Of a DNA stretch of 64,000 bases, positions 3,327-21,503 are shown piece after piece. The notes below the pieces were generated by a model, which had not been told where the DNA came from, searched no databases, and worked only from the letters and a program-made list of their open reading frames with translations. This stretch comes from Minisyncoccota bacterium (GTDB taxonomy: Bacteria > Patescibacteriota > Minisyncoccia > Phycocordibacterales > JAQTLZ01). The position numbers were made by a program, and so were the translations under genes. The first letter of the stretch is position 1, and each line of letters starts with the position of its first letter. The stretch lies in NCBI GenBank assembly GCA_028714635.1, contig JAQTLZ010000002.1, positions 9,362-73,361 on the forward strand. Reading direction: 5' to 3'.

Positions 3327-4166
3327 ATGGATTTCCTAAAACCTCATAAAATTGAAGACCTTATTATGAGCCTCCTTACCCAAGGAGAGAGGTCTACGAG
3401 CGCCCTTCTTGGAGAAATACGAGGCATTCGGAAGACCACCAAACAAGGCTTTTATGCTTCACTTCGAAAATTAAAAGAAGAAGATGTGATCCTTATTTAC
3501 AAAAAACGAGTGTCGCTCAACACTGTTTGGATAAAAAAGATGAAAGATACTTTTAATGCCGTGAGTAAGACCTACACAATCGAACAGGATTCATTTGACG
3601 TGTTGAGTCTTCAAGACAAAGAGAGTCTCACCTATTCTTTTTCTACAATAAAAAATCTCGATACATTTTGGGGACATTCACAAAATATTCTTTTACATAA
3701 TACAAATCCAGATGACGCAATTTATGTTTTCGATCCTCACTACTGGTTTTATATCGCCCGCAAAGAAACGGAAACTTCGCTTCTCAAAGAAATAGTCGAA
3801 AACAAACGGCAGTTTCTGATAAATGTCGGAGGAGATACTCCGTTAGATAAAATAATAAAGTCTGATTTCAACAATGACTACCTCCAATACAGCCACAAGA
3901 AAGTTTTTGAGAAAGAAAATTACTATATTACTGTTGTCGGAGATTACATCAGCGAAGTTTTTCTCGACGAAAAGACAGCACAGAGAATAGATGACTTGTA
4001 TAAGTCTGCGGAAACAATCAATGATCATGTTATCGCCACACTTAAGTCCCGTCTTCTGGCAAAAGTGAAGAGCAAAATAAAAATTTCCAAGAATAAAGCT
4101 CGGGCAGAGAGGTTAAAGAAGATGCTCGGGAAGGATTTTTATATAATCCGGGAGAAAAATACTTGA
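3327..4166 (+). CDS. Winged-helix regulator, divergent member of the TrmB-like paralog family in this window
   Basis: N-terminal wHTH-like segment. The C-terminal region aligns with the other four paralogs (VVGDYI / IYGDNI / VMGDYI block). Confidence 0.5.
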   Translation: MDFLKPHKIEDLIMSLLTQGERSTSALLGEIRGIRKTTKQGFYASLRKLKEEDVILIYKKRVSLNTVWIKKMKDTFNAVSKTYTIEQDSFDVLSLQDKESLTYSFSTIKNLDTFWGHSQNILLHNTNPDDAIYVFDPHYWFYIARKETETSLLKEIVENKRQFLINVGGDTPLDKIIKSDFNNDYLQYSHKKVFEKENYYITVVGDYISEVFLDEKTAQRIDDLYKSAETINDHVIATLKSRLLAKVKSKIKISKNKARAERLKKMLGKDFYIIREKNT

Positions 4167-4348
4167 AATAACCACTCACATTTTCGGGTAATATATGCGG
4201 CCTAACCCCATGAAAAATCCGTGCAAAACCCTTATGGTGTATAACAAAATGCTTTTAAAACAAGTTCAGTCTAAATTATACGCAAAGAAAAAACCTGTCG
4301 CGCCGGATGAATCTGCGCGCTCACGCCAGAATCGAGCAGAAAATGAAC

Positions 4349-5086
4349 TTATTTCGGTATGAAAGCCTTCGCGCTTCGCCACGCCATTTCAAACATTGTC
4401 TTCATAGTGGTCGCGATGGTCACGTCTTCGATGCGGACAACGAACAAATTAAACTCCTGAAGCCGGAAAAAGCAGACGACGTTGTCATAAATAACACTGT
4501 CGTTGAATACCGGACCACTCGCCAAACGCGCGCTGTAATTTTCTCCGGCTGTCACTGCCCATCTTTTCGCACTCGCTCTTGCGTCCGGTGTGTCGGCGAG
4601 AATTTCTCTAGTAAAAATTTTATTATCTATCGTCGCTTGATTTATTTTTCGGTACGCATCGGGAAATATTTTTTCAACTGAAGAAAGATCGGACCAAAAA
4701 ATAAGTTCCCGAGTTTTTTTCATCTCTTCATAAATATGAAAAAGTCCTTTCTCTCCTTCAAAGACTTGCACGCCCGGTCTTCCCTGTTCCGATTGTTGTA
4801 AAATTTCAAGCTCATGAATTTGTTTTTTAAACGAGCTGACATTTTCTTCAAGTTTGTTCTCGACCGCTTTCGGCGAGAGCGCCTGATAATATTCTTTTTT
4901 GCCGATTGTGATTTTATGAATGAATCCGCTTTTTAGCATCTCTTCCAGGTACACGTACACAGTCGGACGTTTCAGTTCGCATTTAGTGGAGATATTTTTC
5001 ACTGATGACGTGCCCAAAGCCAAAGTAGCCATATAGACTTTGGCCTGTTTTTCATTGAGTCCAAGGGTTTGAAGTGCTTGTATCAT
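4349..5086 (-). CDS. TrmB family transcriptional regulator
   Basis: N-terminus LGLNEKQAKVYMATLALGTSSVKNIS...RPTVYVYLEEM, typical of a TrmB wHTH. Confidence 0.7.
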   Translation of the reverse strand: MIQALQTLGLNEKQAKVYMATLALGTSSVKNISTKCELKRPTVYVYLEEMLKSGFIHKITIGKKEYYQALSPKAVENKLEENVSSFKKQIHELEILQQSEQGRPGVQVFEGEKGLFHIYEEMKKTRELIFWSDLSSVEKIFPDAYRKINQATIDNKIFTREILADTPDARASAKRWAVTAGENYSARLASGPVFNDSVIYDNVVCFFRLQEFNLFVVRIEDVTIATTMKTMFEMAWRSAKAFIPK

Positions 5087-5598
5087 CCCCTAATCCTATC
5101 CTGTTTGATTATAAATGTCAATAAATCTGACATATTTTATCCTACATTTCTATATTTATAGGCCTATTTTAGTTATCTTTAACTCATTTCTTCTGCTCTT
5201 TTTGACATATCTAGGATTCGTTGTAAAGTTATTGCAGTAGTACATTGACACACGGACTGTTCCGTGGTCTGAAGAAAAATGACATTTTGGCCTAAGGGCC
5301 GGAAGGATTGGTGACATCGTGTCAAACGAAGAGAAACTGCGGCTGGAAAATCTGGAGAAAAGAATTAAGGGAATGTTCAGCATACTTCCTCTCCATGATC
5401 AGAAAATCATCGAGTCAAAATACGGTCCCATAAAGGATTGGACGCTCGATACCATCCGGAACATAGAGACGACTGGGTTCAATCAAGTCTCTTATCCGTG
5501 TCAGTAGAAGTGGGGGGATTCTAAAAAAATCCCCCATCTTATCAAGTCCGCAAGCGCTTGTGGACTTGTAGGAAAAATTACTCATAAGCATATTAAAA

Positions 5599-6750
5599 AT
5601 GAATAAGAAAATAATTATAGGAATTGTTCTCGTCCTACTTGTCACTCTAGGAATTGGGATCGCAAAGTACAATGCCGGTAGTAGAAACACTGCCGCATTG
5701 GAACTCTCAGGGACTATAAAAGTCGGAGCAGCGCTTGGTCTCACCGGTGAATGTGCAAACTACGGTGAGGGAGAACTCAAAGCCGCGCGACTCGCCATAG
5801 ATGAGGCAAATAAAAGCGGTGGAATCTTGGGAAGAAAACTCGAGCTCATCACAGAGGATACGCAATGTAGTCCGAAAGGTTCAGTGAATGCGATAAGAAA
5901 ACTCATTGACATCAACAAAGCAGAAGCCATCGTCGGACTCACCTTTGGCGATAGCTTCCAAGCAGGATACACAATAAACAATCCTGCGCACATTGTTGCA
6001 GTTTCTCCCTCGACAGCTCTCGAAGCTCTCGCGTACAACAACGCTTCGACTGACTACGTCTTCTCAACTTGGTTTTCCGAAAGAGACGAGATCCAAGCGC
6101 TCCAGAAACGAGCAAAAGAGATGAACATAAAGAAATTTGTGCTCTTCCATGATGAGGATGCATTTGCAAGCATGCTTTCATCACTCTGGAATACGTATGC
6201 GAAAGAGAACGGCCTAACGATTGTGAAGGAATACAAAGTTCCTGTCGGCTACGATGATTACCGAACAATCATCCTGAAAATGAAAGCAGATAACCCCGAG
6301 GGAATAGCTTTCTTCGCACAAACTCAAGCTACGCGAGCGAAGTTCATGAAAGAAGCTAAAGAACTTGGCCTTAATGCGCAGATCTTCCAAAGTGCGGACA
6401 TTGAATACCCATCACTCCTTGAAAACTTCGGGAGTGCGATGGAAGGAATAATCTACACCTTTCCCGAAGTAACGGGAGAGAGTAAATCATTCTTCGACCG
6501 TTTCAAAGCTTTCTACGGAGAGGATTCGGTTGGAGGAAGCGATGCAAACGCCTACGACGCCACTCGAGTAATCATTGCCACACTTACAGAGCATTACAAA
6601 AATGGCACTGATATGAAAACCGCGGTGGAGAAAACAAACATACCGGGTACAGCATTCAAAGAAATAAAATTCGATGAAGCTCACCAAGTCACTGGTTCGA
6701 AATACATAATCAAGACGGTGCGGGATGGAAAGTTCGTGGAGGTGAAGTAA
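5599..6750 (+). CDS. Periplasmic binding protein type 1 (Leu/Ile/Val-binding-like substrate-binding protein) with N-terminal TM or signal. No adjacent permease or ATPase.
   Basis: ALGLTGECANYGEGELKAARLAIDEANKSGGILGRKLELITEDTQ resembles LivJ/LivK-family proteins. Confidence 0.75.
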   Translation: MNKKIIIGIVLVLLVTLGIGIAKYNAGSRNTAALELSGTIKVGAALGLTGECANYGEGELKAARLAIDEANKSGGILGRKLELITEDTQCSPKGSVNAIRKLIDINKAEAIVGLTFGDSFQAGYTINNPAHIVAVSPSTALEALAYNNASTDYVFSTWFSERDEIQALQKRAKEMNIKKFVLFHDEDAFASMLSSLWNTYAKENGLTIVKEYKVPVGYDDYRTIILKMKADNPEGIAFFAQTQATRAKFMKEAKELGLNAQIFQSADIEYPSLLENFGSAMEGIIYTFPEVTGESKSFFDRFKAFYGEDSVGGSDANAYDATRVIIATLTEHYKNGTDMKTAVEKTNIPGTAFKEIKFDEAHQVTGSKYIIKTVRDGKFVEVK

Positions 6751-6782
6751 GACAAAACAAAAACACTAGCTTAACGCTAGTG

Positions 6783-6960
6783 TTTTTGTTTTTGTGCGGG
6801 ACGGAGATCGGTCGTTACACGACCAGTACCCCGATTGGATTTTTTATGCGCGCTCACGCGCTTTTAAAAATGCTCAATCGGGCTTCGATTCTCCCGTCAT
6901 GAAGCGCCCCGCGCTTCACTTCCCCACAAAATGAAAAAAGACCTTTCGGCCTTTTTTCAT
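6783..6960. repeat. tRNA-Gly-associated composite. It contains a direct duplicate of the tRNA-Gly 3' end (6795-6810), a conserved hairpin motif CGGTCGTTACACGACCAGTACCCCGATTGGATTTTT (6809-6845), an inverted T-arm-like fragment (6871-6895), a CCCC-loop hairpin (6901-6917) and the tRNA terminator (6934-6957).
   Basis: Sequence identity to the tRNA-Gly 3' end, and to motif copies at 13975-14013 and 14155-14176. Confidence 0.5.
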
Positions 6961-6964
6961 TTTG

Positions 6965-7035
6965 TGCGGGACGGGAGAATCGAACTCCCGCCAAGAGTTT
7001 GGAAAACTCCTATTCTACCATTAAACTAGTCCCGC
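6965..7035 (-). tRNA. tRNA-Gly (anticodon UCC), no encoded CCA
   Basis: Cloverleaf folds by hand: acceptor GCGGGAC/GTCCCGC, anticodon loop TTTCCAA, T-arm GGGAG-TTCGATT-CTCCC. Confidence 0.85.
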
Positions 7036-7125
7036 AATATTTTCTTTTCAAACGAAACAAGATGAATATATCACAAAAATCGAGAAAGACAAAAGTAAGA
7101 GAAAAATGCTATTGTACTGAAAAAT

Positions 7126-8250
7126 ATGAAAGAATTTCTAACCACCGCTGTCTTTAAACTTGTCGTCACAGCCACGGCAGTCATTCAATTTTTCCTCGCC
7201 ACACCAAAGCAGACCGTGACTCCGCCCTCCCCTGTTCACCTGTCACAAATTGCGCAAGTACAACAAATTCCTGAAATTGTTTTGCCGGATCCGTTCTCGC
7301 TTCTTTCGCCAGAAAATTTCCAAGTAGAAAATGTGCCAGCAAAAAAATTCCTTCCGCTCATACCAAAGAAAGTAGCTTCCCGGCAAAACCCTGTACCGCA
7401 AGTTGCGACTTCGAAACCGCAAATTCTAGACCCCCGACTTCACGGCTGGGATCTCACCAATGCAAAAATTGCACCGGCTGTCGTAAATATTTTCTGCACA
7501 CTCCAAACTAGAAATATCATTCGCACTTCAACAGGTAGCGGGGTCGTCATCGACCCACGGGGAGTGATTCTCACCAATGCTCACATCGCTCAATATCTTC
7601 TTCTCGCAGACACAGCAACAAATCCAAAAACAGATTGCGCGATACGAAATGGCAATCCAGCAAAAGGAAATGCTTTCGCAAAACTTCTTTACATAAGCCC
7701 TGCTTGGATCAACGCCCACGGTGGCGATCTCTTAAATCCAAGTCCAGTTGGAACGGGAGAACATGACTACGCACTTCTCATGTCCAACACTCGTTCTTTC
7801 GCACCACTCGCACATGAAAATACTGAACCAGGAGAAGACACTATCCTCGCCGGATACCCATCGCCTTTCACTTCCCTTTCTTCTCGCGACAATCTGAATT
7901 TTCTTTCCGTCCTAACTCAAACTGAAAAGACTCAAGGATTTCGTGGTAATGGCGATGATCTTCTCTATTTCGGCGGTTCACTTCTTGCTGAACGAGGCTC
8001 TTCCGGCGGGCCAGTAATAAATGAAGATGGAAAAGTCTTAGGAATCCTTGTTACAGCCACCCCAGGAATTACTGTCGCATCGAGAGAGTCGCGAGCAATT
8101 TCTGCCTCCTACATTCAAAAAGATTTTCGAGAAGAAAACGGAACAAGCATTCAAGAATTTTTATCCGGAGATTTAAATTCCGCACGAATAAATTTCATGA
8201 ATCAATATGGAAATAGTTTAGGCGCGAAACTTCTCCAAAATTTTAACTAA
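7126..8250 (+). CDS. Secreted trypsin-like (S1 / HtrA-like) serine protease, no PDZ domain
   Basis: TNAHI His motif and GSSGGPV Ser motif. N-terminal hydrophobic segment. Confidence 0.8.
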   Translation: MKEFLTTAVFKLVVTATAVIQFFLATPKQTVTPPSPVHLSQIAQVQQIPEIVLPDPFSLLSPENFQVENVPAKKFLPLIPKKVASRQNPVPQVATSKPQILDPRLHGWDLTNAKIAPAVVNIFCTLQTRNIIRTSTGSGVVIDPRGVILTNAHIAQYLLLADTATNPKTDCAIRNGNPAKGNAFAKLLYISPAWINAHGGDLLNPSPVGTGEHDYALLMSNTRSFAPLAHENTEPGEDTILAGYPSPFTSLSSRDNLNFLSVLTQTEKTQGFRGNGDDLLYFGGSLLAERGSSGGPVINEDGKVLGILVTATPGITVASRESRAISASYIQKDFREENGTSIQEFLSGDLNSARINFMNQYGNSLGAKLLQNFN

Positions 8251-8548
8251 TGTTTTTCGCAAGTGAAACGAGAACATCAAAATTATCTTCTGAAACTATT
8301 TTATTTTTTTTCTCGAAGTTACATTTTTCGCACCGCTGAATAACAGAAATTTCGCCACCTTTATAGATCGAACCGACAGGGCGCATCATCCCTCCACAGG
8401 TATTTGCTCTGTCTCCGGGATGAATGTCCACATGCTTGCTCCAAAGACACTTCGGACAATGATTTGTATACCCGGTACCCGAGACTGTGAAACCGCAATG
8501 CTCACAGGTAAAATCTTCAATTTTTCGCTGGAATTTTCTCTCTTTCAT
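8243..8548 (-). CDS. RNHCP domain zinc-ribbon protein
   Basis: YTNHCPKCL motif plus additional Cys pairs. Confidence 0.65.
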   Translation of the reverse strand: MKERKFQRKIEDFTCEHCGFTVSGTGYTNHCPKCLWSKHVDIHPGDRANTCGGMMRPVGSIYKGGEISVIQRCEKCNFEKKNKIVSEDNFDVLVSLAKNIS

Positions 8549-9428
8549 TGGAAATTGAATATTGGGAATTGGAAATTTTAATTATAGCCCCTTTTCGTTT
8601 TAAAAACCCCTCTTTGATGAGCGCCGAAATATTTGCTTCACATCGCTTATCTGCAATTTCTTCCAAAAGTTTTTTCTCTGACATTTTTTCTTTGGCTGAA
8701 ATGAGTTCCAAAATCTTCCCACGCACTTCCCTATTTGAACCTGCAAATTTCGATTGCTTTGCGTAGTGAGCACTTCGGCGATTTGGATTCGGTACAGTTG
8801 CTTTGAGCATTGCTCCGTAATCCATGAGTGCGTAATACCATTCGCGCGGAGTCACTTTTTCCTTATGGAACCATTCGCTCGAATGGTTCCATCGAGAATT
8901 TGGCAAAGCCTTTTCAACAAAAGGAAAAATAACTTTATCATCTACCATCTTGCAATCCGCATCGTCGAAAAAGAAATGGAGAAACGTCCGCCGAATATTT
9001 GTTTCGATAAAAAGTGTTGGCTTGTTCCACGCATAGGCCGCGACCGCCCCGGCGGTCGCGGCTCCTACTCCAGGCAAGCTATCAAGTTTCTCCAAATCAT
9101 TCGGCACTTCCCCGCCAAAATCCCGCACAACCATCTCCGCCGCGCGCTTCAGATTAAGCGCGCGGCGATTGTACCCCAGCCCCTGCCACAATTTCAAAAC
9201 ATCACCCATGTTCGCCTGCGCCAATTTTTGCACCGTCGGAAACCTTTTGGTAAAACTTTCATATTTCGGAATCACCCGCGAAACCTGCGTCTGCTGAAGC
9301 ATAATTTCCGAAACCAAAATTTTATAAGGATCAGTAGTCTCCCGCCAAGGCATTTGGCGTTTGTTTTTTGCATAATAATTCCAGATTGTTTGCTGGAATT
9401 TTTTAATATTTTGGTTTGAAACTTTCAC
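8517..9428 (-). CDS. HhH-GPD DNA glycosylase, MutY-like N-terminal domain, with a non-MutY C-terminal extension and no 4Fe-4S cysteine cluster
   Basis: LVSEIMLQQTQVSRV and LPGVGAATAGAV helix-hairpin-helix motifs. Confidence 0.8.
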   Translation of the reverse strand: MKVSNQNIKKFQQTIWNYYAKNKRQMPWRETTDPYKILVSEIMLQQTQVSRVIPKYESFTKRFPTVQKLAQANMGDVLKLWQGLGYNRRALNLKRAAEMVVRDFGGEVPNDLEKLDSLPGVGAATAGAVAAYAWNKPTLFIETNIRRTFLHFFFDDADCKMVDDKVIFPFVEKALPNSRWNHSSEWFHKEKVTPREWYYALMDYGAMLKATVPNPNRRSAHYAKQSKFAGSNREVRGKILELISAKEKMSEKKLLEEIADKRCEANISALIKEGFLKRKGAIIKISNSQYSISNEREKIPAKN

Positions 9429-9454
9429 AAACCTAGCATAGCGTAATTTTAGAA

Positions 9455-9495
9455 AAAGAAAAAATAAAAAACCTCCGACAGACTTCGTCGGAGGT
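9455..9495 (-). terminator. Rho-independent terminator (CCTCCGAC...GTCGGAGG hairpin with a T-run on the minus strand) ending the 11023-9513 operon
   Basis: Hairpin plus TTTTTTATTTTTT on the minus strand. Confidence 0.6.
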
Positions 9496-9512
9496 TTATA
9501 GAAATCTCACCG

Positions 9513-10424
9513 TTAAGCGCCTTCAGCAAGAAACGCTCGTACTGACGGTTTCGCGCCTTTTACCTTAAACATTTCCCTTTCTGATGTTCCATGAAGAGAG
9601 CTTAAGCCGAGGTAACGGAACGTAGGGGACACAGAGACGGACAAGTGACAAGCATATCCCTTGTCGCAAAACCAAACCGAATTAGGATTATCAGGTTCAG
9701 CAGCTATGATGTATGCAGCACCAAATCGTTCAGGCAGAATAATCCCAAGCTCACTCCCATGAAGAGACCTCATGAGTCCCAAAAGGTAGTTCGCCCCATT
9801 CACGCACGGTTTGAGATTTTGTGCTCGCATGATTTGCACGTATTCGGTTTCGTGCAGATCTACATCGCGGGTAAACACGACGTGGACTGTTTTCTTCTTT
9901 TTATGAACACGCACAAGGTCTATGTCCTGAACTCCGCCCGTGTTGTCCCAATCAGTCAAATATACTAAGCCCTGGCGTACAGAATTTACCGGTTCAACGT
10001 CGTGAAATGTTAGGGTTTCTTCACCTTGGAATGAGACCTTAGAGCTGTGCGCTGCCCACATCTTTTTTCTATGCAGCGCATCATGAAGCTCACGGCCATT
10101 TGAACCATTTGTTCTAGAGACATGATCGTGTGTCGCCACAAAGAGCGCGTGGCGGATGTAGCTCACGTCTACAATGCTTTTAGACATACGGGTCACATCG
10201 TCTTTGAGACGAATCCCAAAAAATGTCCTGTCTCCGATTCCGAAAAACATCTGGCGGACGGAATCCGAAACATGATGTTCATAGTAATCCCAGTCAACGA
10301 CCTTCTTGCGAAGAAGGGCGAGAACGTAGCGCGCTTCCGCCTTCGTGAGACTTCTCGACGGCACAGGACCGTTGGTTGAATCGATACAGACCATGAGTCC
10401 CATCAAACCACGAATTGAAAGCAT
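9513..10424 (-). CDS. Hypothetical protein (303 aa), second gene of a two-gene minus-strand cassette. Good SD sequence AAGGGGG upstream.
   Basis: ORF with an RBS. Locally higher GC than the surrounding sequence. No recognisable motif. Confidence 0.5.
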   Translation of the reverse strand: MLSIRGLMGLMVCIDSTNGPVPSRSLTKAEARYVLALLRKKVVDWDYYEHHVSDSVRQMFFGIGDRTFFGIRLKDDVTRMSKSIVDVSYIRHALFVATHDHVSRTNGSNGRELHDALHRKKMWAAHSSKVSFQGEETLTFHDVEPVNSVRQGLVYLTDWDNTGGVQDIDLVRVHKKKKTVHVVFTRDVDLHETEYVQIMRAQNLKPCVNGANYLLGLMRSLHGSELGIILPERFGAAYIIAAEPDNPNSVWFCDKGYACHLSVSVSPTFRYLGLSSLHGTSEREMFKVKGAKPSVRAFLAEGA

Positions 10425-10522
10425 GTTTTCCCCCTTTGAATGTTTTGTTTCTGAAAAGAACTTCTGCTTTCATCCTTTCGGAATCATCAGTCGAGATACA
10501 CATCTCGATAGCAGGAGGGTTT

Positions 10523-11023
10523 TCAGAAAACCCTCCGAAAATTTTTAACCCCGGCGACAAACTGGTCCCCGCAAACCACCTCGCTCTTCTCAAGATACAA
10601 TCCCGAGAGCAGAAGAGGCTTGTCGCAGAGGGGTTGGGTTTCTTCAGATACCGTACCGATATCCAAAGTCTCCTCTGCTCCGCTCGCGAAAACCAAGATC
10701 AATTTGTATTCTCGGTTTTCGACAATGTTGATAAGAAGATCAACCCCGACAGGAACGAAGCTCAATCCGGCAGTTTCCGAATTAGGCTCCAGTTCGAGCC
10801 CCCTATCGAGCATGTGCTCGATAATGTGTTCGTCGTTTACAAACCATCTACCGGAGGTTTCCGAACTGATACCAGAAATCTTCTTCACTTGTAATCTCAT
10901 GGCAAGCTCCTTGGTTTGAATGAACTTTTGAGTTTCGGCGAGGTTCCTTTGAACCTCTATAGACCTTAACTTTCTGGTATCAGAATAGCAGATTTTAATC
11001 ATATTGTCAATATTTGTCGCCAA
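10523..11023 (-). CDS. Hypothetical protein (about 160 aa), first gene of the cassette. Possible TTG start at 11023 or ATG start at 11002.
   Basis: ORF lying between the promoter region and the downstream gene. A plus-strand ORF 10415-10894 is the alternative reading. Confidence 0.4.
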   Translation of the reverse strand: MATNIDNMIKICYSDTRKLRSIEVQRNLAETQKFIQTKELAMRLQVKKISGISSETSGRWFVNDEHIIEHMLDRGLELEPNSETAGLSFVPVGVDLLINIVENREYKLILVFASGAEETLDIGTVSEETQPLCDKPLLLSGLYLEKSEVVCGDQFVAGVKNFRRVF

Positions 11024-11091
11024 TTAAATTACAAAATAAGCTATATTTATCAATATATTTATGGTTATAAGCATATTTTTGTGGAAAGTTA

Positions 11092-11120
11092 TTGACACAA
11101 ATAATTTTAGGGTGTAAACT
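11092..11120 (+). promoter_or_regulatory. Sigma70-like promoter: TTGACA, 17-nt spacer, TAAACT. Upstream element CATATTGTCAATATTTGT (11000-11017) is shared with the 13186 locus.
   Basis: Hexamers and spacing read from the sequence. Confidence 0.5.
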
Positions 11121-11127
11121 TCCCAAC

Positions 11128-11916
11128 ATGCAAGACAAACACACGGAACTCAAAATCAAAATGCAATCCTTCGGCTTCAGTGAGAAAGAAACTGATGTGT
11201 ATGTTGCGCTTCTTGAACTCGGCAAAGCGACTGTCTCTAAAATTTCTCTCGGAGCAGGAATAAACCGCACAACTGGGTACGACATCCTTGCCTCCCTTGT
11301 GAGTAAGAAGCTCGTGAGTGTTTCCGGCAAGGAACCGAAACAGGAATATGCAGCCGAACCGCCAACAGCTATCACTGAATATTTGAAGCGGCGAATTTCA
11401 GAGACAGAAGGATATATAAAACAAGCAGAAAAAATTCTGCCGGAACTCACTCTCCTTCATACAATAGAAAATCGTCCGAAGATAAGATTTTACGAAGGCA
11501 CCGAAGGACTTCAGTATGTATACGAAGATACTCTCACGAGCTCCGAGACAATTCGCGGATATGCGGCAGTAGATGAGATGCATAAAGCTCTTCCGAATTA
11601 TTTTCCCGAGTATTACAAACGCCGGGCGGCCAAAGGAATTTCTATCAGAGCCATTCTTCCGAAAAGTGCGATCAGTCTTGAAAGAGGGACTCACGACGTA
11701 GAAGAAAAAAGAGACACCGCTTTCATTCCTGCTGATAAATACCAATTTGCTCCCGAGATAGATATATATGACAACAAAGTAATGATCGCTTCATGGAGAG
11801 AAAAGCTCGGCATCATCATTGAAAGCGAAGAGATCGCAGACGCAATGAAGAAGATATATGAACTCGCTTGGGCAGAGGCGAAAAGGTTGGATAAGGAAAC
11901 AACAAAAATAAATTAA
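11128..11916 (+). CDS. TrmB family transcriptional regulator (alternative start at 11161)
   Basis: FGFSEKETDVYVALLELGKATVSKIS...RTTGYDILASLVSKKLV wHTH region. Confidence 0.75.
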   Translation: MQDKHTELKIKMQSFGFSEKETDVYVALLELGKATVSKISLGAGINRTTGYDILASLVSKKLVSVSGKEPKQEYAAEPPTAITEYLKRRISETEGYIKQAEKILPELTLLHTIENRPKIRFYEGTEGLQYVYEDTLTSSETIRGYAAVDEMHKALPNYFPEYYKRRAAKGISIRAILPKSAISLERGTHDVEEKRDTAFIPADKYQFAPEIDIYDNKVMIASWREKLGIIIESEEIADAMKKIYELAWAEAKRLDKETTKIN

Positions 11917-11976
11917 TTCTGGAAAAAGAAAAACCGCCCGAGAAAACTTTTTTAAAGTTTTCTCGGGCGGTAATTT

Positions 11977-12495
11977 TTAATACCAATTTTTCTGATGATC
12001 TATCGGCTCGTCTGAAATCTCGGTTGCGAAAACCAGCATCCTCTTCCCGTCTTCACAATTGAAGAGATGCTTGATGCCTCGCGGTATGGTCACGAGATCT
12101 CCGGGCTTGGCTTCCAGTTTCCCGTCTTCGGTATAAAGAAAGCCCTCACCTTCAAGCACGAACGAAATGACATGCGAGCTGTGATAGTGAAGTTCTTCTT
12201 TCAAGTTGCCGTAGATAACCACGATAGTCGCGGCAACGAGAATCCTGCCGTTTGCAGGAAACAATTCCCACATCGCAATATCCGGCCCGCAGTACACAAG
12301 CGAGTTCCCCGCCGTGTATGCCGCCCGCTTTGGCGTAATGACCGAACACTTCTTCGATTTCAGAGTTGCCATCATCTTTCTCGCTACTACTTTCAAATCA
12401 TCCGGCGCTCGGTCACGTGCAGTCGTAGTGCCGTGAAGTAATCCTTTTGCCTGAACATCCAAAGCAATCAGCCGATCAAGATTCTTCTTTCTCAT
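11977..12495 (-). CDS. Cupin domain protein
   Basis: HYHSSHVISFVLEGEG...PGDLVTIPRGIKH, consistent with the two cupin motifs. Confidence 0.7.
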   Translation of the reverse strand: MRKKNLDRLIALDVQAKGLLHGTTTARDRAPDDLKVVARKMMATLKSKKCSVITPKRAAYTAGNSLVYCGPDIAMWELFPANGRILVAATIVVIYGNLKEELHYHSSHVISFVLEGEGFLYTEDGKLEAKPGDLVTIPRGIKHLFNCEDGKRMLVFATEISDEPIDHQKNWY

Positions 12496-12575
12496 TGCTT
12501 ACTCCTTTCTTATCTTGGGTTTGAGACAGAAAACCGCCAGATAAAGCGCAGTTTTTCTGTCTTACACCTGGCGGT

Positions 12576-13037
12576 TCACAAACCTTGTTCGTGACGATAT
12601 TCACCGACTGGAGCAAATTTGGCGCGATGGTATTGAATCCTCGGATGCCTTGGAACAGCATGCTCTCTTAAGACTGATACGATTTCTTCTAAAGAACCAT
12701 CCTCCTTTAATTGCGCGCCCAAACGCCAACGCATTGTCTCCATCCAGCCAATTTTTTCTATAAGGGCTTGATCGTATTTGTCGGTGCGATCAATTCGCGA
12801 CAGAACCGTTTTAAATACTTCGATCAGCACCCTAATGGGAGCGGTACCAATTTCATATCCTTTTTCCTCAACAAGGAACAAGGAGAATACAAATTCAGGA
12901 GGAAGTTCATGGTGACTTCTTATCTTCCTTCGTTCACCCCGGCTTGTTGGTTTTCCCGCCTCTTTCATTATCCTGATGACCTCTTCATACAGGACTTCGG
13001 GAAACTCAGGATACGGCACTCCTTCGACTTCTCTCAT
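12576..13037 (-). CDS. Hypothetical protein (153 aa)
   Basis: ORF upstream of and on the same strand as the cupin gene. Confidence 0.45.
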   Translation of the reverse strand: MREVEGVPYPEFPEVLYEEVIRIMKEAGKPTSRGERRKIRSHHELPPEFVFSLFLVEEKGYEIGTAPIRVLIEVFKTVLSRIDRTDKYDQALIEKIGWMETMRWRLGAQLKEDGSLEEIVSVLREHAVPRHPRIQYHRAKFAPVGEYRHEQGL

Positions 13038-13122
13038 GGTCTCCCCTCCATTTCAATGAGCATTTCGCTCGGTTAATTTGCTTTTCATCCTTCACTGCCG
13101 AACATACTACCCGATTTTTAGC

Positions 13123-13178
13123 ATATTGTCAAGTATTGTTGGACAATTGTTGACAAATATCTGACAACAGAATATACT
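13123..13178 (+). promoter_or_regulatory. Operator-like inverted repeats TTGTCAA(n17)TTGACAA and ACAATTGT overlapping the promoter: TTGACA (13150-13155), 17-nt spacer, TATACT (13173-13178)
   Basis: Read from the sequence. CATATTGTCAAGTATTGT matches 11000-11017 at 16 of 18 positions. Confidence 0.5.
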
Positions 13179-13185
13179 TCTATCC

Positions 13186-13959
13186 ATGGCAGTAAACGAA
13201 ACATTAAAAAAATTAGGACTCAATGACAAAGAGATAAAGATTTATCTCACCCTTCTTAAGCATGGGAAAACAAAACCATCCTCACTTTCGAGTTTGACGA
13301 AAATAAATCGTGCAACGGTCTACAACTTGGTAAACGGCTTGCTTTCAAAGGGGCTCATCGCCGAAGATCTCACGGGCAAAACCCTCTACCTCACTCCCCT
13401 CCCCCCGAAAAATCTGGAAAAAATTCTCGATCAGCAAAAAAGAGAACTGAAAGAAAGAGAAGCTCTCATCAAAAAAGCTATCGGCGAGTTGAGCATGATA
13501 ACACCAGCCAGCAATTATCCTGTTCCGAAAATTCAATTCGTGGAAGAAGGCAATCTTGAGAAATTTCTCTACGACAACATTCTCAAATGGCAGAAAAGCA
13601 TGTTCGAACATGATGCCACGTGGTGGGGCTTCCAAGATCATTCCCTTCTCTCAAACTATGAAGAGTATATTCATTTCACTTGGCAGACTTCCTATGGAAA
13701 ACATAAAGATTTCAAAGTAAAACTCTTGGGTAATTCCGCAAAAATTGAAGATAAAGTAGCGAGTAAATACTTAAAATCAAGACGTGATATTCGTTTTGTT
13801 GAAGGAATGAATTTCACATCCACTGTCTGGGTAATGGGAGATTATATAGCAATGGTAGCAACTGGCGCTCATCCATTCTATCTATTCGAGATTCACGACC
13901 AGACACTTGCTCATAATATGAGGGAGGTATTCAAAAAGCTTTGGGAAAAAACTCAATAA
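13186..13959 (+). CDS. TrmB family transcriptional regulator
   Basis: LGLNDKEIKIYLTLLKHGKTKPSSLS...RATVYNLVNGLLSKGLI. Confidence 0.75.
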   Translation: MAVNETLKKLGLNDKEIKIYLTLLKHGKTKPSSLSSLTKINRATVYNLVNGLLSKGLIAEDLTGKTLYLTPLPPKNLEKILDQQKRELKEREALIKKAIGELSMITPASNYPVPKIQFVEEGNLEKFLYDNILKWQKSMFEHDATWWGFQDHSLLSNYEEYIHFTWQTSYGKHKDFKVKLLGNSAKIEDKVASKYLKSRRDIRFVEGMNFTSTVWVMGDYIAMVATGAHPFYLFEIHDQTLAHNMREVFKKLWEKTQ

Positions 13960-13974
13960 TTATAGAGAATTTCG

Positions 13975-14278
13975 GTCGTTACACGACCAGTATCCTCGTT
14001 GGAGATTTTGTCTCGCTTTGCTCACAAAATCTACTCAACGAGGCTTCGAATCTCTGACGAAAGTGCTCCCCAGCACTTTCTCACCCAGCCACGTAAAAAA
14101 CCGCTCTCGCGGTTTTTTCTTGTCGGGGTGCAGAAAGTTTCGAAGCTTACAGCTTCAGTACCCCGATTGGATTTTTCTTCGAAAAATGCTCAGTCGGGTT
14201 TCGAATCTCTGACGAAAGTGCTCCCCAGCACTTTCTCACCCAGAGCAAGTAAAAAGCCGCATAAGCGGCTTTTTCTTG
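13975..14278. repeat. About 153-bp imperfect tandem units upstream of tRNA-Pro. Each unit carries the conserved hairpin motif or its GTACCCCGATTGGATTTTT half, a GTGCTCCCCAGCAC hairpin, a terminator hairpin and a duplicate of the tRNA-Pro 3' end (14115-14135).
   Basis: Direct repeats 14046-14090 versus 14199-14243 and 14115-14135 versus 14268-14290. Motif shared with 6809-6845. Confidence 0.5.
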
Positions 14279-14349
14279 TCGGGGTGCAGAGATTCGAACT
14301 CTGACTACATGATCCCAAATCATGGATGCTACCGTTACACCACACCCCG
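14279..14349 (-). tRNA. tRNA-Pro (anticodon UGG), no encoded CCA
   Basis: Acceptor CGGGGTG/CACCCCG, anticodon stem CATGA/TCATG with loop TTTGGGA, T-arm CAGAG-TTCGAAT-CTCTG. Confidence 0.85.
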
Positions 14350-14461
14350 GTATAAATATTTCTCCAAAAATCAACTCGAAAATCTTATCACAGGAATTTT
14401 AAAAATCCTAATTCTCTTGTCTATTTTTATTATAAAGGACATTATACTTTATAAAAGACAT

Positions 14462-14878: not shown

Positions 14879-14884
14879 GTGGAA

Positions 14885-15584: not shown

Positions 15585-15655
15585 TGCGGGTAGCGAGAAT
15601 CGAACTCGCGCCTTAACATTGGCAATGTTACGTCCTACCACTAAACTATACCCGC
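15585..15655 (-). tRNA. tRNA-Gly (anticodon GCC), no encoded CCA
   Basis: Near-identical in layout to bacterial tRNA-Gly(GCC). Anticodon loop TTGCCAA, T-arm GCGAG-TTCGATT-CTCGC. Confidence 0.85.
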
Positions 15656-16330
15656 ATTATATTTTTCTTCTATCAAATCAGCGGCTATCAAATTCATCCA
15701 GAGCAGAATTTTTCGCTTTAAGTATGTACTAGAAACTCCAATACTGCAAACTCCGTGAGACAATTTTCTCGTCTTATGCTTGCCTTTTATTACAATACTT
15801 TTTGTAAAATCCTCCTGTTTTAGGCCCGTATTACTAATCCAGAATGTCTTGCATTCTTTTTCCTTCAGTTCGGGGTAGAGCAGAATCCAAGCCCTGATTT
15901 TAGGAGAAGAGAAACCGCAAATTTTCTTTAGAAAATCGAGAAATACTTTGATCATAAGAGGGTCGGAATTAGCTATAGAACACCTATTATTAGAGCGCTT
16001 ATTGCCTTCGCCCCAGTAAATCATCATTCCCGCCAGGAAAAGAGGGTGGTATTTGAGTTTTTCAAACTCTTCAGTTGCTTCATTTTCGGCTTCTTTGTAC
16101 AGTTTCTCGAGATTTTCACCTCGAATTTTATTCAATTCTTTGATCCTTATGGTCGATTTCCCTTGAGCATTCGAGGCTAAACGAAAAGCAATCTTATTAG
16201 ACCATTTTTGATCCCTGAACCACTCTGAGAGGGTACTCTTTGGAACTCTAATAAGACTTCTGATCTCATTATAGCTTTTGCCTTTAGCTCTAAGTGCGAA
16301 CACTTTTTCTTTGTCTTTTCTCATATACAT
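15641..16330 (-). CDS. HTH-containing protein with a degenerate LAGLIDADG-like motif (FLAGMMIYWGEGNK). Possible free-standing homing-endonuclease-like protein between two tRNA genes. Its 3' end overlaps tRNA-Gly(GCC) by about 15 nt.
   Basis: N-terminal resolvase-type HTH (KGKSYNEIRSLIRVPKSTLSEW). LAG..G motif and basic C-terminal region. Confidence 0.45.
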   Translation of the reverse strand: MYMRKDKEKVFALRAKGKSYNEIRSLIRVPKSTLSEWFRDQKWSNKIAFRLASNAQGKSTIRIKELNKIRGENLEKLYKEAENEATEEFEKLKYHPLFLAGMMIYWGEGNKRSNNRCSIANSDPLMIKVFLDFLKKICGFSSPKIRAWILLYPELKEKECKTFWISNTGLKQEDFTKSIVIKGKHKTRKLSHGVCSIGVSSTYLKRKILLWMNLIAADLIEEKYNAGIV

Positions 16331-16473: not shown

Positions 16474-16484
16474 CAAAAAGGCGT

Positions 16485-18341: not shown

Positions 18342-18369
18342 CCCAGGCACCTAAATTTAGGTGCCTGGG
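18342..18369. terminator. Perfect 28-bp palindrome CCCAGGCACCTAAATTTAGGTGCCTGGG between convergent cca and xth; bidirectional terminator candidate
   Basis: Inverted repeat read from the sequence. A TGTGGATAA DnaA-box-like tandem 10-mer lies immediately upstream (18316-18335). Confidence 0.5.
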
Positions 18370-18398
18370 TTTATAGAAAGACATAGCGATTTATAGCC

Positions 18399-19193
18399 CT
18401 ATTTCAATGTTATAGAGACTGGGCAATGATCTGAACCCATGACTTCCGGGTGAATTTCAGCCTTTGTAACTTTATCTTTCAATCCCGAAGACACAAGTAC
18501 ATAGTCTATTCTCCAGCCCACATTTCGAGCTCGAGCGTTGGCGAAGTGCGACCACCAAGTATAGAAACCATTTCCTTTGTGAGACATTCTGAATGTGTCG
18601 ACAAATCCAGCATCAATGAAAGCTTGGAATCCCGCTCGTTCTTCTTTGGTGAAACCTTTGAGCCCATCATTTTCTTTCGGCCGGGCCAAATCATCGGGAG
18701 TATGGGCAACATTCAGATCTCCGCAAAAGATGACAGGTTTTTTCTTTTCTAAACTTTTACAATACGCAAGAAATGCCGGATCCCATTGCTTATGTCGAAG
18801 GGGAATTCGACTCAAATCATCTTTCGCGTTGGGAGTATAGACCGTGACGATATAAAAATCCTTATATTCAGCCATAATGACGCGCCCTTCGGTCCGAGGA
18901 TCTCCATAGGTATCTGCACAAAGCCCAAATTTCTCACTTATTGCCTCCGGAAGGCCATTTACTATAGAAAGAGGTTTTGTTTTGGTAAAGATGGCAGTAC
19001 CGGAATATCCCTTCTTTACAGCAGAATTCCAATATTCTTCGTATTGGGGCAGATCTACGGGAGATTCGTGCTCTTGCGCCTTTGTCTCTTGCAAACACAA
19101 GATATCCGGATCATATTTTTCGATAAACGGAAGAAAAAGCCCTTTTTTGACGACAGCTCGTATACCATTCACATTCCAAGAAATGATTTTCAT
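18399..19193 (-). CDS. xth: Exodeoxyribonuclease III
   Basis: MKIISWNVNGIRA ... SDHCPVSITL. Confidence 0.9.
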   Translation of the reverse strand: MKIISWNVNGIRAVVKKGLFLPFIEKYDPDILCLQETKAQEHESPVDLPQYEEYWNSAVKKGYSGTAIFTKTKPLSIVNGLPEAISEKFGLCADTYGDPRTEGRVIMAEYKDFYIVTVYTPNAKDDLSRIPLRHKQWDPAFLAYCKSLEKKKPVIFCGDLNVAHTPDDLARPKENDGLKGFTKEERAGFQAFIDAGFVDTFRMSHKGNGFYTWWSHFANARARNVGWRIDYVLVSSGLKDKVTKAEIHPEVMGSDHCPVSITLK

Positions 19194-19231
19194 GGAACTA
19201 CTATAGCATTTTTAAAAAGTTTTTCAGTTTC

Positions 19232-20185
19232 CTAGTTTCGTTTCTTATCATGAAACTGCTTGTGAATGTCGTGGAGATGTTTGTCTGTCATATGCGTATA
19301 GATCTGTGTCGTACTTATGTTTGAATGCCCAAGAAGCATCTGCACAGAGCGCAGATCAGCCCCATTTTGCAATAAGTCAGTGGCGAAGCTGTGGCGCAAG
19401 CTGTGCGGGGTGACTTTTTTCGAGACTCCGGCCTTGATCGCATAGTGTTTCACCAAACGCTCTACTGAACGCGAAGAAAGCTGCATTCCTTTATTTTTTC
19501 TATCGATTTTCCCGAATCCTCGCTCTTCTATTTGGGTGAAAAGGGAATCGTCCATATCTTTTCGCTTTTTCAAATACTTTTGAAGCATTTCTTTTGCAGT
19601 TTTTGAGAGAAATACTACTCGAACCTTCTCACCTTTCCCCCGGACAGAGAATTCGTCTCGGCTAATGTCCAAATCCCGAGGAAGTTTACAAAGTTCTGAT
19701 ACTCGAAGGCCGGTGGAGAAAAGCATCTCAAGAATGGCTCGGTCACGGAGCTGTTTGAGACTATCGCCCTCTGCCGCTTTAAGGACGCGAGAGAGTTCTT
19801 CAGAAGAAATGGTATCGATCGAGCGCTCTGGCACCTTTGCAAGCTCAATCCTGTCCGGCGAGAGGGAAGGAATGCCTCGGTAGACTAAATATTTGAGAAA
19901 TGAGCGAAGAGCGATGAGATAATAATTCTGGGTTTTCTTTTTGAGCGTATCGGAATCACCGCGAGTCGGTTTTGCACTCTGGCGATTGAGCCAAAGCCGG
20001 AATTCCCGGACAGCGGAATCCGTGATATCGGTTGGTTTTTTGAGTTTCGAATACTGAAGAAAGCGAGTTAAGTAGCGCTCATAGTTTTCAACGGTTTTTT
20101 TGCTTCGTCCCTTGTCAATTTCAACGTATTGGAGAAATTCCTTTTTGAGTTCATCTAAATTCGCCATTATTTTATTATACACCAC
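19232..20185 (-). CDS. Tyrosine site-specific recombinase (XerC/XerD family)
   Basis: HSLRHSFATDLLQNGADLRSVQMLLGHSNISTTQIYTH catalytic box. N-terminal SAM-like domain. Confidence 0.85.
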   Translation of the reverse strand: MVYNKIMANLDELKKEFLQYVEIDKGRSKKTVENYERYLTRFLQYSKLKKPTDITDSAVREFRLWLNRQSAKPTRGDSDTLKKKTQNYYLIALRSFLKYLVYRGIPSLSPDRIELAKVPERSIDTISSEELSRVLKAAEGDSLKQLRDRAILEMLFSTGLRVSELCKLPRDLDISRDEFSVRGKGEKVRVVFLSKTAKEMLQKYLKKRKDMDDSLFTQIEERGFGKIDRKNKGMQLSSRSVERLVKHYAIKAGVSKKVTPHSLRHSFATDLLQNGADLRSVQMLLGHSNISTTQIYTHMTDKHLHDIHKQFHDKKRN

Positions 20186-20204
20186 TGTCGCACAATATTC
20201 TGAG

Positions 20205-20240
20205 AAATAAAAAACCAGTGCCGCGAAAGCACACTGGTTT
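20205..20240 (-). terminator. Rho-independent terminator for the 20246-20554 gene (AACCAGTG...CACTGGTT hairpin plus U-run on the minus strand)
   Basis: Hairpin followed by TTTTTTATTT on the minus strand. Confidence 0.6.
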
Positions 20241-20245
20241 CAAAA

Positions 20246-20554
20246 TTAAAGACCTATACTCTTAAAGAAAGAGGTCGACAAAACATCTCCAGACGGGATG
20301 CGAATTTGCATGCTACCGTCAAATCTCTCAAATCCCACAAACAAGACTAGAGAGCATTGTTCACAAGCCACAGTAAGACCAATCGATTTTGCTGAATCAA
20401 TGCCGCGATGCACAGAAAACTGCCTGTGGCCACATTTGCATCTAAGCTGTTGCAATAGGGGTTTATCCCTATCCGCACCTTGTAGAATTGGAACTGTATC
20501 TATCATCTCCACGACGATCTCCTTAGATTGGGTTCTAAAAGCTGATCGAGACAA
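20246..20554 (-). CDS. Small Cys-rich protein (possible zinc ribbon, CKCGH...CEQC)
   Basis: ORF with its own terminator. Confidence 0.4.
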   Translation of the reverse strand: MSRSAFRTQSKEIVVEMIDTVPILQGADRDKPLLQQLRCKCGHRQFSVHRGIDSAKSIGLTVACEQCSLVLFVGFERFDGSMQIRIPSGDVLSTSFFKSIGL

Positions 20555-20723
20555 GCACGATGCCTGTCAAAGAACTTCGCATAGGCTAGAACAAAAATAT
20601 CTTTTGGTAAATTTAGAATTACTAAACTTTTGATAATTCTACGAACTGTTAATAATATCCATTATTTATTGGCTTTTTTAGAATGATATTTACATATATA
20701 GTTGTAAATGTTAAACTACAACT

Positions 20724-21503
20724 ATGGGCATAAAAACAGAAATAAGTGAGTTTTTAAGAGAGCTCGGTCTGCGAAAGGCTGAAATAGCAGTATATTTGGC
20801 TGCTCTGGAACTTGGTTCGGCTTCGGCAAGTACTATCGCCAAGGAAGCTGACCTCAATAGGATTACTGCCTATGAGGCATTGAAGCGACTTTCTCGCAAG
20901 GGTTTTATAAGAATCAGAGCTAAGAAGAGTGACGCTACAAAATATTTTGTGCCAGTCGAGTATTCAGAGCTCGTGGGCAAGCTTAAACTCAAACATGAAG
21001 AACTAGCCGAAACGATCAAACGAGCAGGACTTTTGAAAAAAGAATTCGAAGCAAACTTCACCAAAGTCGATGAAAAACCAGTCGTTCTCTACTATGAAGG
21101 AGTTGAGGGAGTAAAGGAAGTACTCAATGACACCCTCAAAGACAGGCCGAAGGAAATTATTTCTTTTGCTTCTGCTGAATCTTTAGACGAAAGTCTTGAT
21201 CAGAATTTTTTAGACAGCTACTGGCAAAAAAGAACAACTCTTGGTATTCCCACGCGTGGAATTATGCCAAACACCTCCAAAGCTACCGCTCTCTTCACAA
21301 AAGAGAAAAATCAGAGGGAAATGAGGAGAATAAAATTTATTTCTGACAAATCGTATGATTTCAAAAATGAACTCGATATTTATGGGGACAATATTTCCAT
21401 GATTTCGCTCGAAAAGGGCAAGGAACATGCTGTTATTATACGAAGCAGGAGTATGGCGGAAGGATTAAGAGCCGTATACGAGACCCTCTGGAATCTAACC
21501 TAA
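20724..21503 (+). CDS. TrmB family transcriptional regulator
   Basis: LGLRKAEIAVYLAALELGSASASTIAKEADLNRITAYEALKRLSRKGFI. Confidence 0.75.
   Translation: MGIKTEISEFLRELGLRKAEIAVYLAALELGSASASTIAKEADLNRITAYEALKRLSRKGFIRIRAKKSDATKYFVPVEYSELVGKLKLKHEELAETIKRAGLLKKEFEANFTKVDEKPVVLYYEGVEGVKEVLNDTLKDRPKEIISFASAESLDESLDQNFLDSYWQKRTTLGIPTRGIMPNTSKATALFTKEKNQREMRRIKFISDKSYDFKNELDIYGDNISMISLEKGKEHAVIIRSRSMAEGLRAVYETLWNLT

Follow-up and report, generated by a model that had tools for sequence, protein, structure and literature searches.

We analyzed a 64,000-nucleotide stretch of DNA, hereafter the window, that carries within its first 21.5 kb five genes, here called p1 to p5, whose products resemble the archaeal regulator TrmBL2, together with the promoters and palindromic elements upstream of these genes, including a 46-bp candidate operator in front of p4. 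The window is chromosomal DNA of a Paceibacteria member of the Patescibacteria, or candidate phyla radiation (CPR), whose proteins stand in public records as 'Candidatus Pacebacteria bacterium'; identical copies of the window proteins also occur in GCA_028711105.1. To our knowledge, almost nothing is known about transcription control in CPR/Patescibacteria. A literature search returned no paper joining TrmB with Patescibacteria, the candidate phyla radiation or the CPR lineage names that were searched. For comparison we used 105 loci fetched from genomes and metagenomes (labelled L005, L098, L104 and so on), and random 64-kb sequences served as controls.

Results

Five TrmBL2-like proteins are encoded in the window

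All five open reading frames (ORFs) lie where an initial annotation of the window had placed them and encode proteins of 245-279 amino acids (aa), the start of p3 at 11128 being an ATG within the longer ORF 11092-11916 (Table 1). A hidden Markov model check against the Pfam family PF01978 (TrmB; gathering cut-off 25.6 bits) bore out the family assignment for p2-p5, all of which match above the cut-off and carry the LGL..E..VY..L..G signature of the N-terminal winged helix. The claim of a TrmB-type winged helix in all five proteins did not extend to p1, which matches no Pfam or NCBIfam model and lacks the signature. By blastp, p2-p5 were pairwise homologous over their full length (23-31% identity; E-values of 1e-11 to 6e-30). 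When only the C-terminal halves were compared, four of the six pairs reached E <= 0.003 (p3-p5, 2e-21; p2-p3, 2e-8; p4-p5, 5e-6; p2-p4, 0.003), with p3-p4 at 0.012 and p2-p5 at 1.5, and the related C-terminal domain that had been proposed is thus found in p2-p5, though not in every pair. The 'GD' block said to end this domain occurs only in p1, p4 and p5; p2 and p3 have IYDN instead, and the block is not C-terminal in position.

None of the five proteins matched the sugar-binding domain PF11495 at E <= 0.1. Scores against the NCBIfam equivalog models for TrmB and TrmBL1 were 16-37 bits, against cut-offs of 600-650, and covered the N-terminal part only; with the TrmBL2 equivalog NF041141 (cut-off 530), p4 scored 29.7 bits and p2 18.4 bits. 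The C-terminal (sugar-binding) domain of TrmB is therefore absent, and the architecture is that of TrmBL2. The sequence profile of the p4 family had TrmBL2 as its top Protein Data Bank (PDB) match (E = 1e-7), and so did the AlphaFold model of p4 (pLDDT 82), for which Foldseek aligned 276 columns of TrmBL2 5bpd at E = 1.3e-11. MarR-family structures came after TrmBL2 in this fold search, and the Pfam MarR scores of the five proteins were below threshold. Judged by sequence, p2-p5 are TrmB-family winged-helix regulators with the short TrmBL2-type architecture, lacking the sugar-binding domain. The proteins are already annotated as TrmB/HTH (helix-turn-helix) in public records.

We rejected p1 as a sequence homolog of p2-p5, since blastp gave E >= 0.006 and the p1 and p4 family profiles aligned with an hhalign probability of 0.5%. 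The AlphaFold (AF2) model of p1 (pLDDT 90.9) has full-length TrmBL2 as its best PDB match (5bpd; Foldseek E = 1e-6, 292 columns), followed by TrmB 3qph. TM scores of the p4 and p1 models against TrmBL2 are only 0.32-0.39, as expected with differing domain orientations. We place p1 in the TrmB family on its predicted fold, sequence profiles giving nothing; as modelled, it is a short TrmBL2-type member, and its own family consists of about 105 CPR proteins annotated 'hypothetical'. All five proteins keep a tyrosine in the recognition helix, equivalent to Y50 in P. furiosus TrmB (PMC4158304). The A-Y-E of p5 aligns with V-Y-D of TrmB 3qph, in an alignment that runs through residue 154, and the context is TVYV in p2, TGYD in p3, TVYN in p4 and GFYA in p1. 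The tyrosine is invariant in 25 orthologs of p4 (Y46) and in 26 homologs of p1 (Y43). TrmB-family proteins dimerize through an amphipathic coiled-coil helix that follows the winged helix; in the AF2 monomer models, a long helix that may be its counterpart lies at residues 74-104 of p4 (with low pLDDT) and 66-84 of p1.

The five genes had been described as a locally expanded family. Relatives of p3 form 2026 clusters at E <= 1e-40, and the best 120 of these are 68-100% identical to it and all from Patescibacteria. Orthologs of p4 occur at 52-64% identity in Buchananbacteria, Berkelbacteria, Moranbacteria, Taylorbacteria and Paceibacteria, relatives of p1 in other CPR genomes reach 66%, and p5 has 2183 relatives among representatives of 50%-identity clusters at E <= 1e-10, the best of them 55% identical. 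Since each paralog is closer to its orthologs elsewhere (55-91%) than to the other paralogs in the window (23-31%), the duplications are ancient and the expansion is not a local one. A recent tandem duplication was rejected on the same paralog identities, and the two divergent 'cargo' proteins beside p3 and p4 are unrelated to each other.

Table 1. Regulator genes, divergent partners, promoters and DNA elements of the window, in order of position; numbers between hexamers are spacer lengths in nucleotides (nt).
Feature	Position	Strand	Length	Description
Palindrome, p1 family	3289..3307	.		AGTAAAA-N5-TTTTACT, 20 nt before ATG; unique in window, 0.06 expected
p1	3327-4166	+	279 aa	TrmBL2-like by structure only
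p2	4349-5086	-	245 aa	PF01978, E 6e-13, 48.9 bits
p2 promoter	5093..5133	-		TTGACA-17-TAGGAT; -10 ends 6 nt before ATG
p2 palindrome	5115-5133	-		ATGTCA-N7-TGACAT over -35 box
Divergent partner of p3	10523..10900	-	125 aa	Function unknown; start ATG at 10900 after AAGGAG
Minus-strand promoter, p3 locus	10982..11010	-		TTGACA-17-(TG)C-TATTCT; -35 plus flank = motif 11000-11017
p4-distal-dyad-like element	11002..11026	+		TATTGTCAATATTTGTCGCCAATTA; gapped position weight matrix (PWM) score
Conserved block, p3 family	11041..11061	.		CTATATTTATCAATATATTTA, between the two promoters; unique in window; 6-locus alignment
p3 dyad	11078..11101	+		TTTGTG-N12-CACAAA over -35 box
p3 promoter	11092..11120	+		TTGACA-17-TAAACT; -10 ends 7 nt before ATG
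p3	11128-11916	+	262 aa	PF01978, E 2e-15, 56.9 bits
Divergent partner of p4	12576..13037	-	153 aa	Function unknown; no family match; unlike p3 partner
Minus-strand promoter, p4 locus	13104..13132	-		TTGACA-17-TAGTAT; -35 plus flank = motif 13122-13139
Predicted p4 operator	13124..13169	.	46 bp	Two overlapping dyads; PWM and conservation
p4 promoter	13150..13178	+		TTGACA-17-TATACT; 11/12 consensus positions; -10 ends 7 nt before ATG
p4	13186-13959	+	257 aa	PF01978, E 2.5e-14, 53.3 bits
p5 promoter	20689..20723	+		TTTACA-17-(TG)TTAAACT; -10 ends 6 nt before ATG
p5 palindromes	20689-20708, 20700-20723	+		TTTACA-N8-TGTAAA; AGTTGTA-N10-TACAACT
p5	20724-21503	+	259 aa	PF01978, E 4e-15, 55.7 bits

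A conserved element covers the promoter of p4

A promoter scan placed the plus-strand promoters of p3 and p4 back-to-back with minus-strand promoters. At p4, the predicted operator has the form TATTGTCAA-N4-TGT-N3-ACAA-N-TGTTGACAA-N5-TGACAACA and can be divided into two dyads. The first, GTCAA..TGT-N3-ACA..TTGAC, is centred at 13141 and pairs the two -35 boxes; the second, TGTTGACA-N6-TGACAACA, is centred at 13158/13159. We built a PWM from 18 close orthologs (39-62% protein identity), leaving the window out. The 18 upstream sequences align ungapped as tattGTCAAgtttTGTtgaACAAgTGTTGACAAtattCtGACAACA followed by the -10 box, and the window scores 63.2 bits on this matrix at 13124-13169, against a maximum of 0.9 +/- 3.8 in random sequences. 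Two parts of the element, TGACAACA in the spacer and TGT-N3-ACA between the -35 boxes, are conserved as strongly as the -35 box itself, and in the PWM this information falls on positions that RNA polymerase does not read. In the p4 orthologs whose sequences were read, a -10-like hexamer lies 16-17 nt beyond the minus-strand -35 box.

Of 72 family loci, 61 have a loose core of the element, GTTGA-N8-11-CAA[CA], within -130 to +30 of the start, where the background expectation is 0.01 per 160 nt. Several of the other 11 carry the core at a greater distance upstream, and in L056 and L064 it also precedes a second paralog. The autoregulatory operator suggested for 13122-13160 has become a very good candidate, since it is retained in front of orthologs whose proteins are no more than 38-64% identical. 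This strong comparative evidence marks 13124-13169 as a probable protein-binding site on the p4 promoter, and autoregulation by p4 would be the simplest reading of a conserved element so placed.

The p3 locus and the motif it shares with p4

The initial annotation had placed copies of one motif upstream of p3 and p4. Two copies do exist, the first at 11000-11017 (CATATTGTCAATATTTGT), which differs from the proposed consensus at 2 positions, and the second at 13122-13139 (CATATTGTCAAGTATTGT), not at 13123-13140; the core that they share exactly is the 11-mer CATATTGTCAA. On the minus strand each copy starts with TTGACAAT, which is the -35 box of the divergent promoter; the p4 copy is also the outer arm of the first p4 dyad. 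The inverted repeats reported at p4, TTGTCAA (13126-13132)-N17-TTGACAA (13150-13156) and ACAATTGT (13143-13150), do occur there, overlapping the -35 box; the former corresponds to two predicted -35 boxes set back-to-back. As an 18-mer the match between the copies is borderline, at 15 of 18 positions, since random 64-kb sequences also reach 15. Over 36 nt (10982-11017 against 13104-13139) it rises to 27 of 36, where the random maximum was 21.7 +/- 0.8 and the largest 24, and the similarity is strongest over the minus-strand promoter. We rejected TTGACAAT as a general promoter consensus of the genome, for it occurs only twice in the window against 3.7 times expected.

Six p3 loci (56-91% protein identity) keep the whole upstream region of p3 in blocks. 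The minus-strand promoter is among them, as TTGACAAT...TGCTATnnT...CAGAAAG with the block TATTGTCAAT and an extended -10, so that the motif at 11000 belongs to a conserved part of the p3 locus that lies on the promoter of the divergent gene. On the p3 side, the block CATATTTTTGTGGAAA-N3-ATTGACACA forms a dyad, TTGTG-N12-CACAA, over the -35 box in five of the six loci, and the exact block TTTTTGTGGAAA-N3-ATTGACACA was found in p3 orthologs only among the 105 loci. The motif at 11000 does not fit as an operator of p3, since about 90 nt separate it from the p3 -35 box downstream and it lies over the -35 box of the opposite strand; if it controls anything, it would control the gene at 10523-10900(-).

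The likeness of the two sites raises the question of a shared operator, in which one regulator, most plausibly p4, would bind both 11002-11026 and 13124-13147, co-repress the genes at 10523-10900(-) and 12576-13037(-), and so link the two loci. On the PWM of the distal p4 dyad the site at 11000 scored 14.3 bits without gaps, which equals the random maximum and is no better than chance. With a single 1-nt deletion, 11002-11026 reached 24.6 bits, unmatched by 150 random windows (15.5 +/- 2.1, largest 21.6), and the equivalent block of other p3 loci, including the 91%-identical ortholog in L098 that has no p4 nearby, scored only 9-16 bits. The 27 of 36 identities and the confinement of TTGACAAT to these two sites in 64 kb point the same way. 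Against this, a change of 1 nt in half-site spacing often abolishes binding of a dimer, much of the similarity falls in the spacer of the minus-strand promoter, outside the element kept in p4 orthologs, the proximal dyad is missing at 11000, and only one genome ties a p4-like site to an adjacent p4. We regard a shared operator as possible but rather doubtful.

Further observations were made at p3. The divergent transcript would start with the conserved CAGAAAG (window 10900-10981(-); L099, L100 and L102), and its leader of 75-135 nt retains partly conserved stretches (AACCTnCTTGC) despite the differing downstream proteins; the leader at 10900-10981(-) has no Rfam match at the gathering threshold. 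Between the convergent p3 and cupin genes, a perfect 18-bp stem (11933-11971) with 9 G-C pairs, flanked on each side by a run of T, resembles an intrinsic terminator acting in both directions. Homologs of p3 (about 30% identical) also occur on two contigs labelled Methanosarcinales and Nanoarchaeota, by label only (L006:2992-3063 and L007:2992-3063). Within about 70 nt before their starts lies a similar dyad, TGTTGTGGA-N-CAACA (in L007 a perfect ATGTTG-N11-CAACAT), followed by a TATA-like TTTATATA about 22 nt before the ATG. The operator type may thus have been kept across domains while the basal promoter was exchanged.

Promoter geometry points to leaderless transcripts

The -10 box of each of p2-p5 stops 6-7 nt short of the ATG, a geometry that a uniform scan found in all 4 of these TrmB-like genes, compared with 3 of 58 other ORFs in the window. 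It also holds in p3 orthologs and in the majority of p4 orthologs, 12 of 18 having the same distance, 37 nt, from the anchor to the ATG. From this promoter geometry, the mRNAs of p2-p5 are probably leaderless. A sigma-70-like -10 box likewise ends 6-7 nt before an in-frame ATG at 19193(-), 29165(+) and 41575(+), and these three ORFs, one of which encodes an Exo_endo_phos nuclease, may also be leaderless. Among the CPR papers listed in our literature search none mentioned 'leaderless', and a CPR perspective made no mention of transcription factors.

Elements upstream of p1, p2, p5 and other paralogs

The p1 family has a palindrome of its own, (A)GTAAA-N5-9-TTTAC(T), which lies 15-25 nt before the ATG in five of six loci, and it also keeps a distal promoter of the form TTGACA...TGnTAT. 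The p2 palindrome covers the -35 box, and the two p5 palindromes lie over the p5 promoter (Table 1). Inverted repeats were enriched in a set of 27 regions upstream of TrmB-like genes (Fisher p = 4e-6). Perfect palindromes also occur just upstream of other CPR TrmB-like paralogs, at L032:6331-6400 (TTTGTCGAA-N3-TTCGACAAA), L068:808-870 (TGTCGGA-N3-TCCGACA), L005:2740-2806 (a repeat with 14-bp arms) and L053:8074-8125 (TGTCATAA-N1-TTATGACA), and these could possibly be operators of different specificities.

Upstream of p2, a 512-nt gap (5087-5598) separates the gene from a divergent Peripla_BP_6 gene. Two strong promoter-like sites on the plus strand (5127-5156 and 5202-5229) and a G-rich hairpin near 5510-5537 lie in this gap. 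A 62-codon ORF within it (5319-5507(+)), which by eye had suggested sigma region 4, has no Pfam match and was set aside.

Divergent neighbors and genome context

The genes beside p3 and p4 had been proposed to form regulator-plus-cargo units with their regulators. This holds in a loose sense only: the upstream neighbor is usually divergent (46 of 50 p4 loci and all six p3 loci), but its identity changes between genomes. The neighbors are mutually unrelated, falling into seven small clusters and 22 singletons that include SBP_bac_3 and Peripla_BP_6 binding proteins, methyltransferases, an FAA hydrolase and a DNA methylase, and a p3 ortholog of 91% identity has a different divergent partner. A conserved 'cargo' gene was therefore rejected, the neighbors of p3 and p4 orthologs being heterogeneous. 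Pairs conserved at least once are p1 with the gene at 2088-2945(-), found in L104 (56%), and p3 with 10523-10900(-), whose 50% identical homolog in L102 is also divergent from p3 and has an equivalent start methionine. Peripla_BP_6 genes recur in divergent position, facing away from p2 in the window and from one ortholog each of p4 (L012) and p1 (L103). Nor is the cassette at 11977-13037 wholly of unknown function, since 11977-12495 encodes a cupin-domain protein.

The regulators are clustered, as had been noted, all five lying within the first 21.5 kb. In the remaining 42.5 kb a profile of p2-p5 found no further member, but it is blind to p1, so that further p1-type members are possible there. 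Such clustering recurs elsewhere: among the 25 fetched p4 loci that reach 8 kb or more, 12 contain between two and four TrmB-like genes, and p1-family genes adjoin p4-family genes in L040 and L087. Housekeeping genes surround the cluster, among them those for RNase Y, an HhH-GPD glycosylase, UPF0102, NUDIX, the CCA-adding enzyme, an Exo_endo_phos nuclease, a XerC/D-type recombinase, S15 and PNPase, together with 4 tRNA genes (6964, 14278, 15584 and 16402); a search of the window for RNA families found these tRNAs and no other known family.

In the related genome L104 the order is RNase Y, HU, two further genes, p1, another gene, UPF0102 and the CCA enzyme. The interval from p1 to UPF0102 is about 10 kb longer in the window, and the extra segment holds p2, p3 and p4; at this position (window 4167-14461) L104 has a single gene (3341-4098). 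The segment contains p2, the Peripla_BP_6 protein, a trypsin-like protease, tRNA-Gly, HhH-GPD, genes of unknown function, p3, the cupin gene, p4 and tRNA-Pro; tRNA genes occur both inside the segment and directly beyond its far end. By this comparison the regulators lie in a variable stretch of a conserved backbone. Origin from a defence system or a phage was rejected, as the similarity to Csa3/CasR seen with PADLOC was weak and confined to the HTH domain, and PHROGs gave nothing.

Beyond this segment, a 229-aa ORF (15641-16330(-)) is flanked by tRNA-Gly and tRNA-Arg, its stop codon overlapping the tRNA-Gly gene. It has an N-terminal HTH and weak PHROG matches ('DNA binding protein', 'transposase') with no solid Pfam match, and may be the remnant of a mobile element.

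Discussion

From the homology, fold, promoter geometry and conservation of DNA elements described above, we infer binding, repression and leaderless translation. We consider it probable, though by no means certain, that these proteins are anciently diverged TrmBL2-type regulators whose p1, p3 and p4 families have kept their own conserved promoter dyads, and that they act by negative autoregulation and by control of divergent promoters. Each gene would be read from its own sigma-70-type promoter, and in these three families a family-specific dyad would lie on or beside it. The predicted protein plan combines a winged helix bearing the recognition-helix tyrosine, a long helix that may serve dimerization and one PLD-like alpha/beta domain. 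A dimer or tetramer of the protein would most likely bind its own promoter and repress it, and the p3 and p4 regulators would probably control the back-to-back divergent promoter as well. Since the 46-bp p4 operator spans both -35 boxes and the p4 spacer, a single bound complex could close both promoters.

Several points weigh against autoregulation as the common theme of these genes. Taken singly, neither the p2 palindrome (p = 0.075) nor the p5 palindrome (p = 0.065) reaches significance, and both are without support from orthologs, no orthologous loci for either gene being present among the 105 fetched loci or in viral contigs. Given the distal promoter, the p1 palindrome may lie in the 5' untranslated region instead of over the promoter. 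The conservation of the promoter regions could in principle reflect another factor. Finally, TrmBL2, the closest solved relative, binds DNA largely without sequence specificity (PMC4158304).

The last point bears on the idea that the five proteins structure the nucleoid, coating DNA with little sequence preference. TrmBL2 is a chromatin protein that binds widely over coding as well as intergenic DNA (PMC4158304). It has the closest solved structure, and it is equally short and without an effector domain. We consider such a role unlikely for the CPR proteins. They are five diverged paralogs, in families with their own conserved site at their own promoter, and these family-specific dyads argue against coating of chromatin; moreover, the best score reported here against the TrmBL2 equivalog, that of p4, is far below its cut-off, and the syntenic region of L104 has a gene for HU. 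Less likely still, to the point of being improbable, is that the conserved sequences are promoter elements only, back-to-back -35 boxes with a favored spacer and no regulator bound, for although the motif contains a perfect TTGACA, minus-strand -10-like hexamers follow at 16-17 nt in both window and orthologs, and the distance from TTGTCAA to the core varies in distant p4 relatives as it would for an independent divergent promoter, the TGACAACA spacer and TGT-N3-ACA are conserved like the hexamers without being read by RNA polymerase, the conserved positions form dyads, the element is specific to the promoters of this family, and the elements differ between paralog families.

Among known systems, TrmBL2 (Pyrococcus furiosus PF0496 / Thermococcus kodakarensis TK0471; PDB 5BOX, 5BPD, 5BPI and 5BQT) shares its architecture and its length of about 260 aa with the CPR proteins. 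TrmBL2 is archaeal, whereas the CPR proteins are bacterial, about 20% identical to it, fail its equivalog model, occur as several paralogs and have family-specific dyads. TrmB and TrmBL1/Tgr of Thermococcales (PDB 3QPH) have the same Pfam DNA-binding domain as p2-p5 and repress through a palindrome over the promoter, and autoregulation has been proposed for Tgr as we propose it here. TrmB controls malE, the gene of a solute-binding protein (PMC4158304), and genes for such proteins (Peripla_BP_6, SBP_bac_3) recur as divergent neighbors in CPR. Unlike the CPR proteins, which are without PF11495, TrmB and TrmBL1 have about 340 aa and carry a sugar-binding effector domain at the C-terminus; they use short operators (TACT-N3-AGTA; the TGM motif), in contrast to the dyads of 22-27 bp with TGTTG or GTCAA half-sites that are predicted in CPR; and they act on archaeal promoters in place of sigma-70 promoters.

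MarR-type autorepressors offer a further parallel, in which a dimeric winged-helix protein occupies a palindrome within a short intergenic region, over the -35/-10 elements of its own and of a divergent gene. MarR proteins have about 150 aa and no separate C-terminal domain, unlike the CPR regulators. In kind, then, the CPR proteins would be a conventional family of autoregulated winged-helix repressors, and what they would add is a deeply conserved operator-promoter in an unstudied phylum.

A broader picture can be drawn, if only tentatively, and we hold it to be less likely than not to survive in full. Patescibacteria and some DPANN-type archaea might share TrmBL2-like autoregulators, each with a portable bidirectional promoter-operator module that is leaderless on the regulator side, with divergent cargo that is exchanged, with regulator islands in a housekeeping backbone and with cross-talk between p4 and p3. 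If this were true, a core CPR transcription network would have in 13124-13169 its first defined cis-regulatory site.

What the window offers at present is a testable regulator-operator pair, p4 and its predicted 46-bp operator, conserved across several CPR classes, along with two further family-specific elements, those of p1 and p3, and the prediction of leaderless mRNAs. These could seed the prediction of regulons in thousands of uncultured genomes and could supply promoter and operator parts for the few CPR strains that are genetically tractable.

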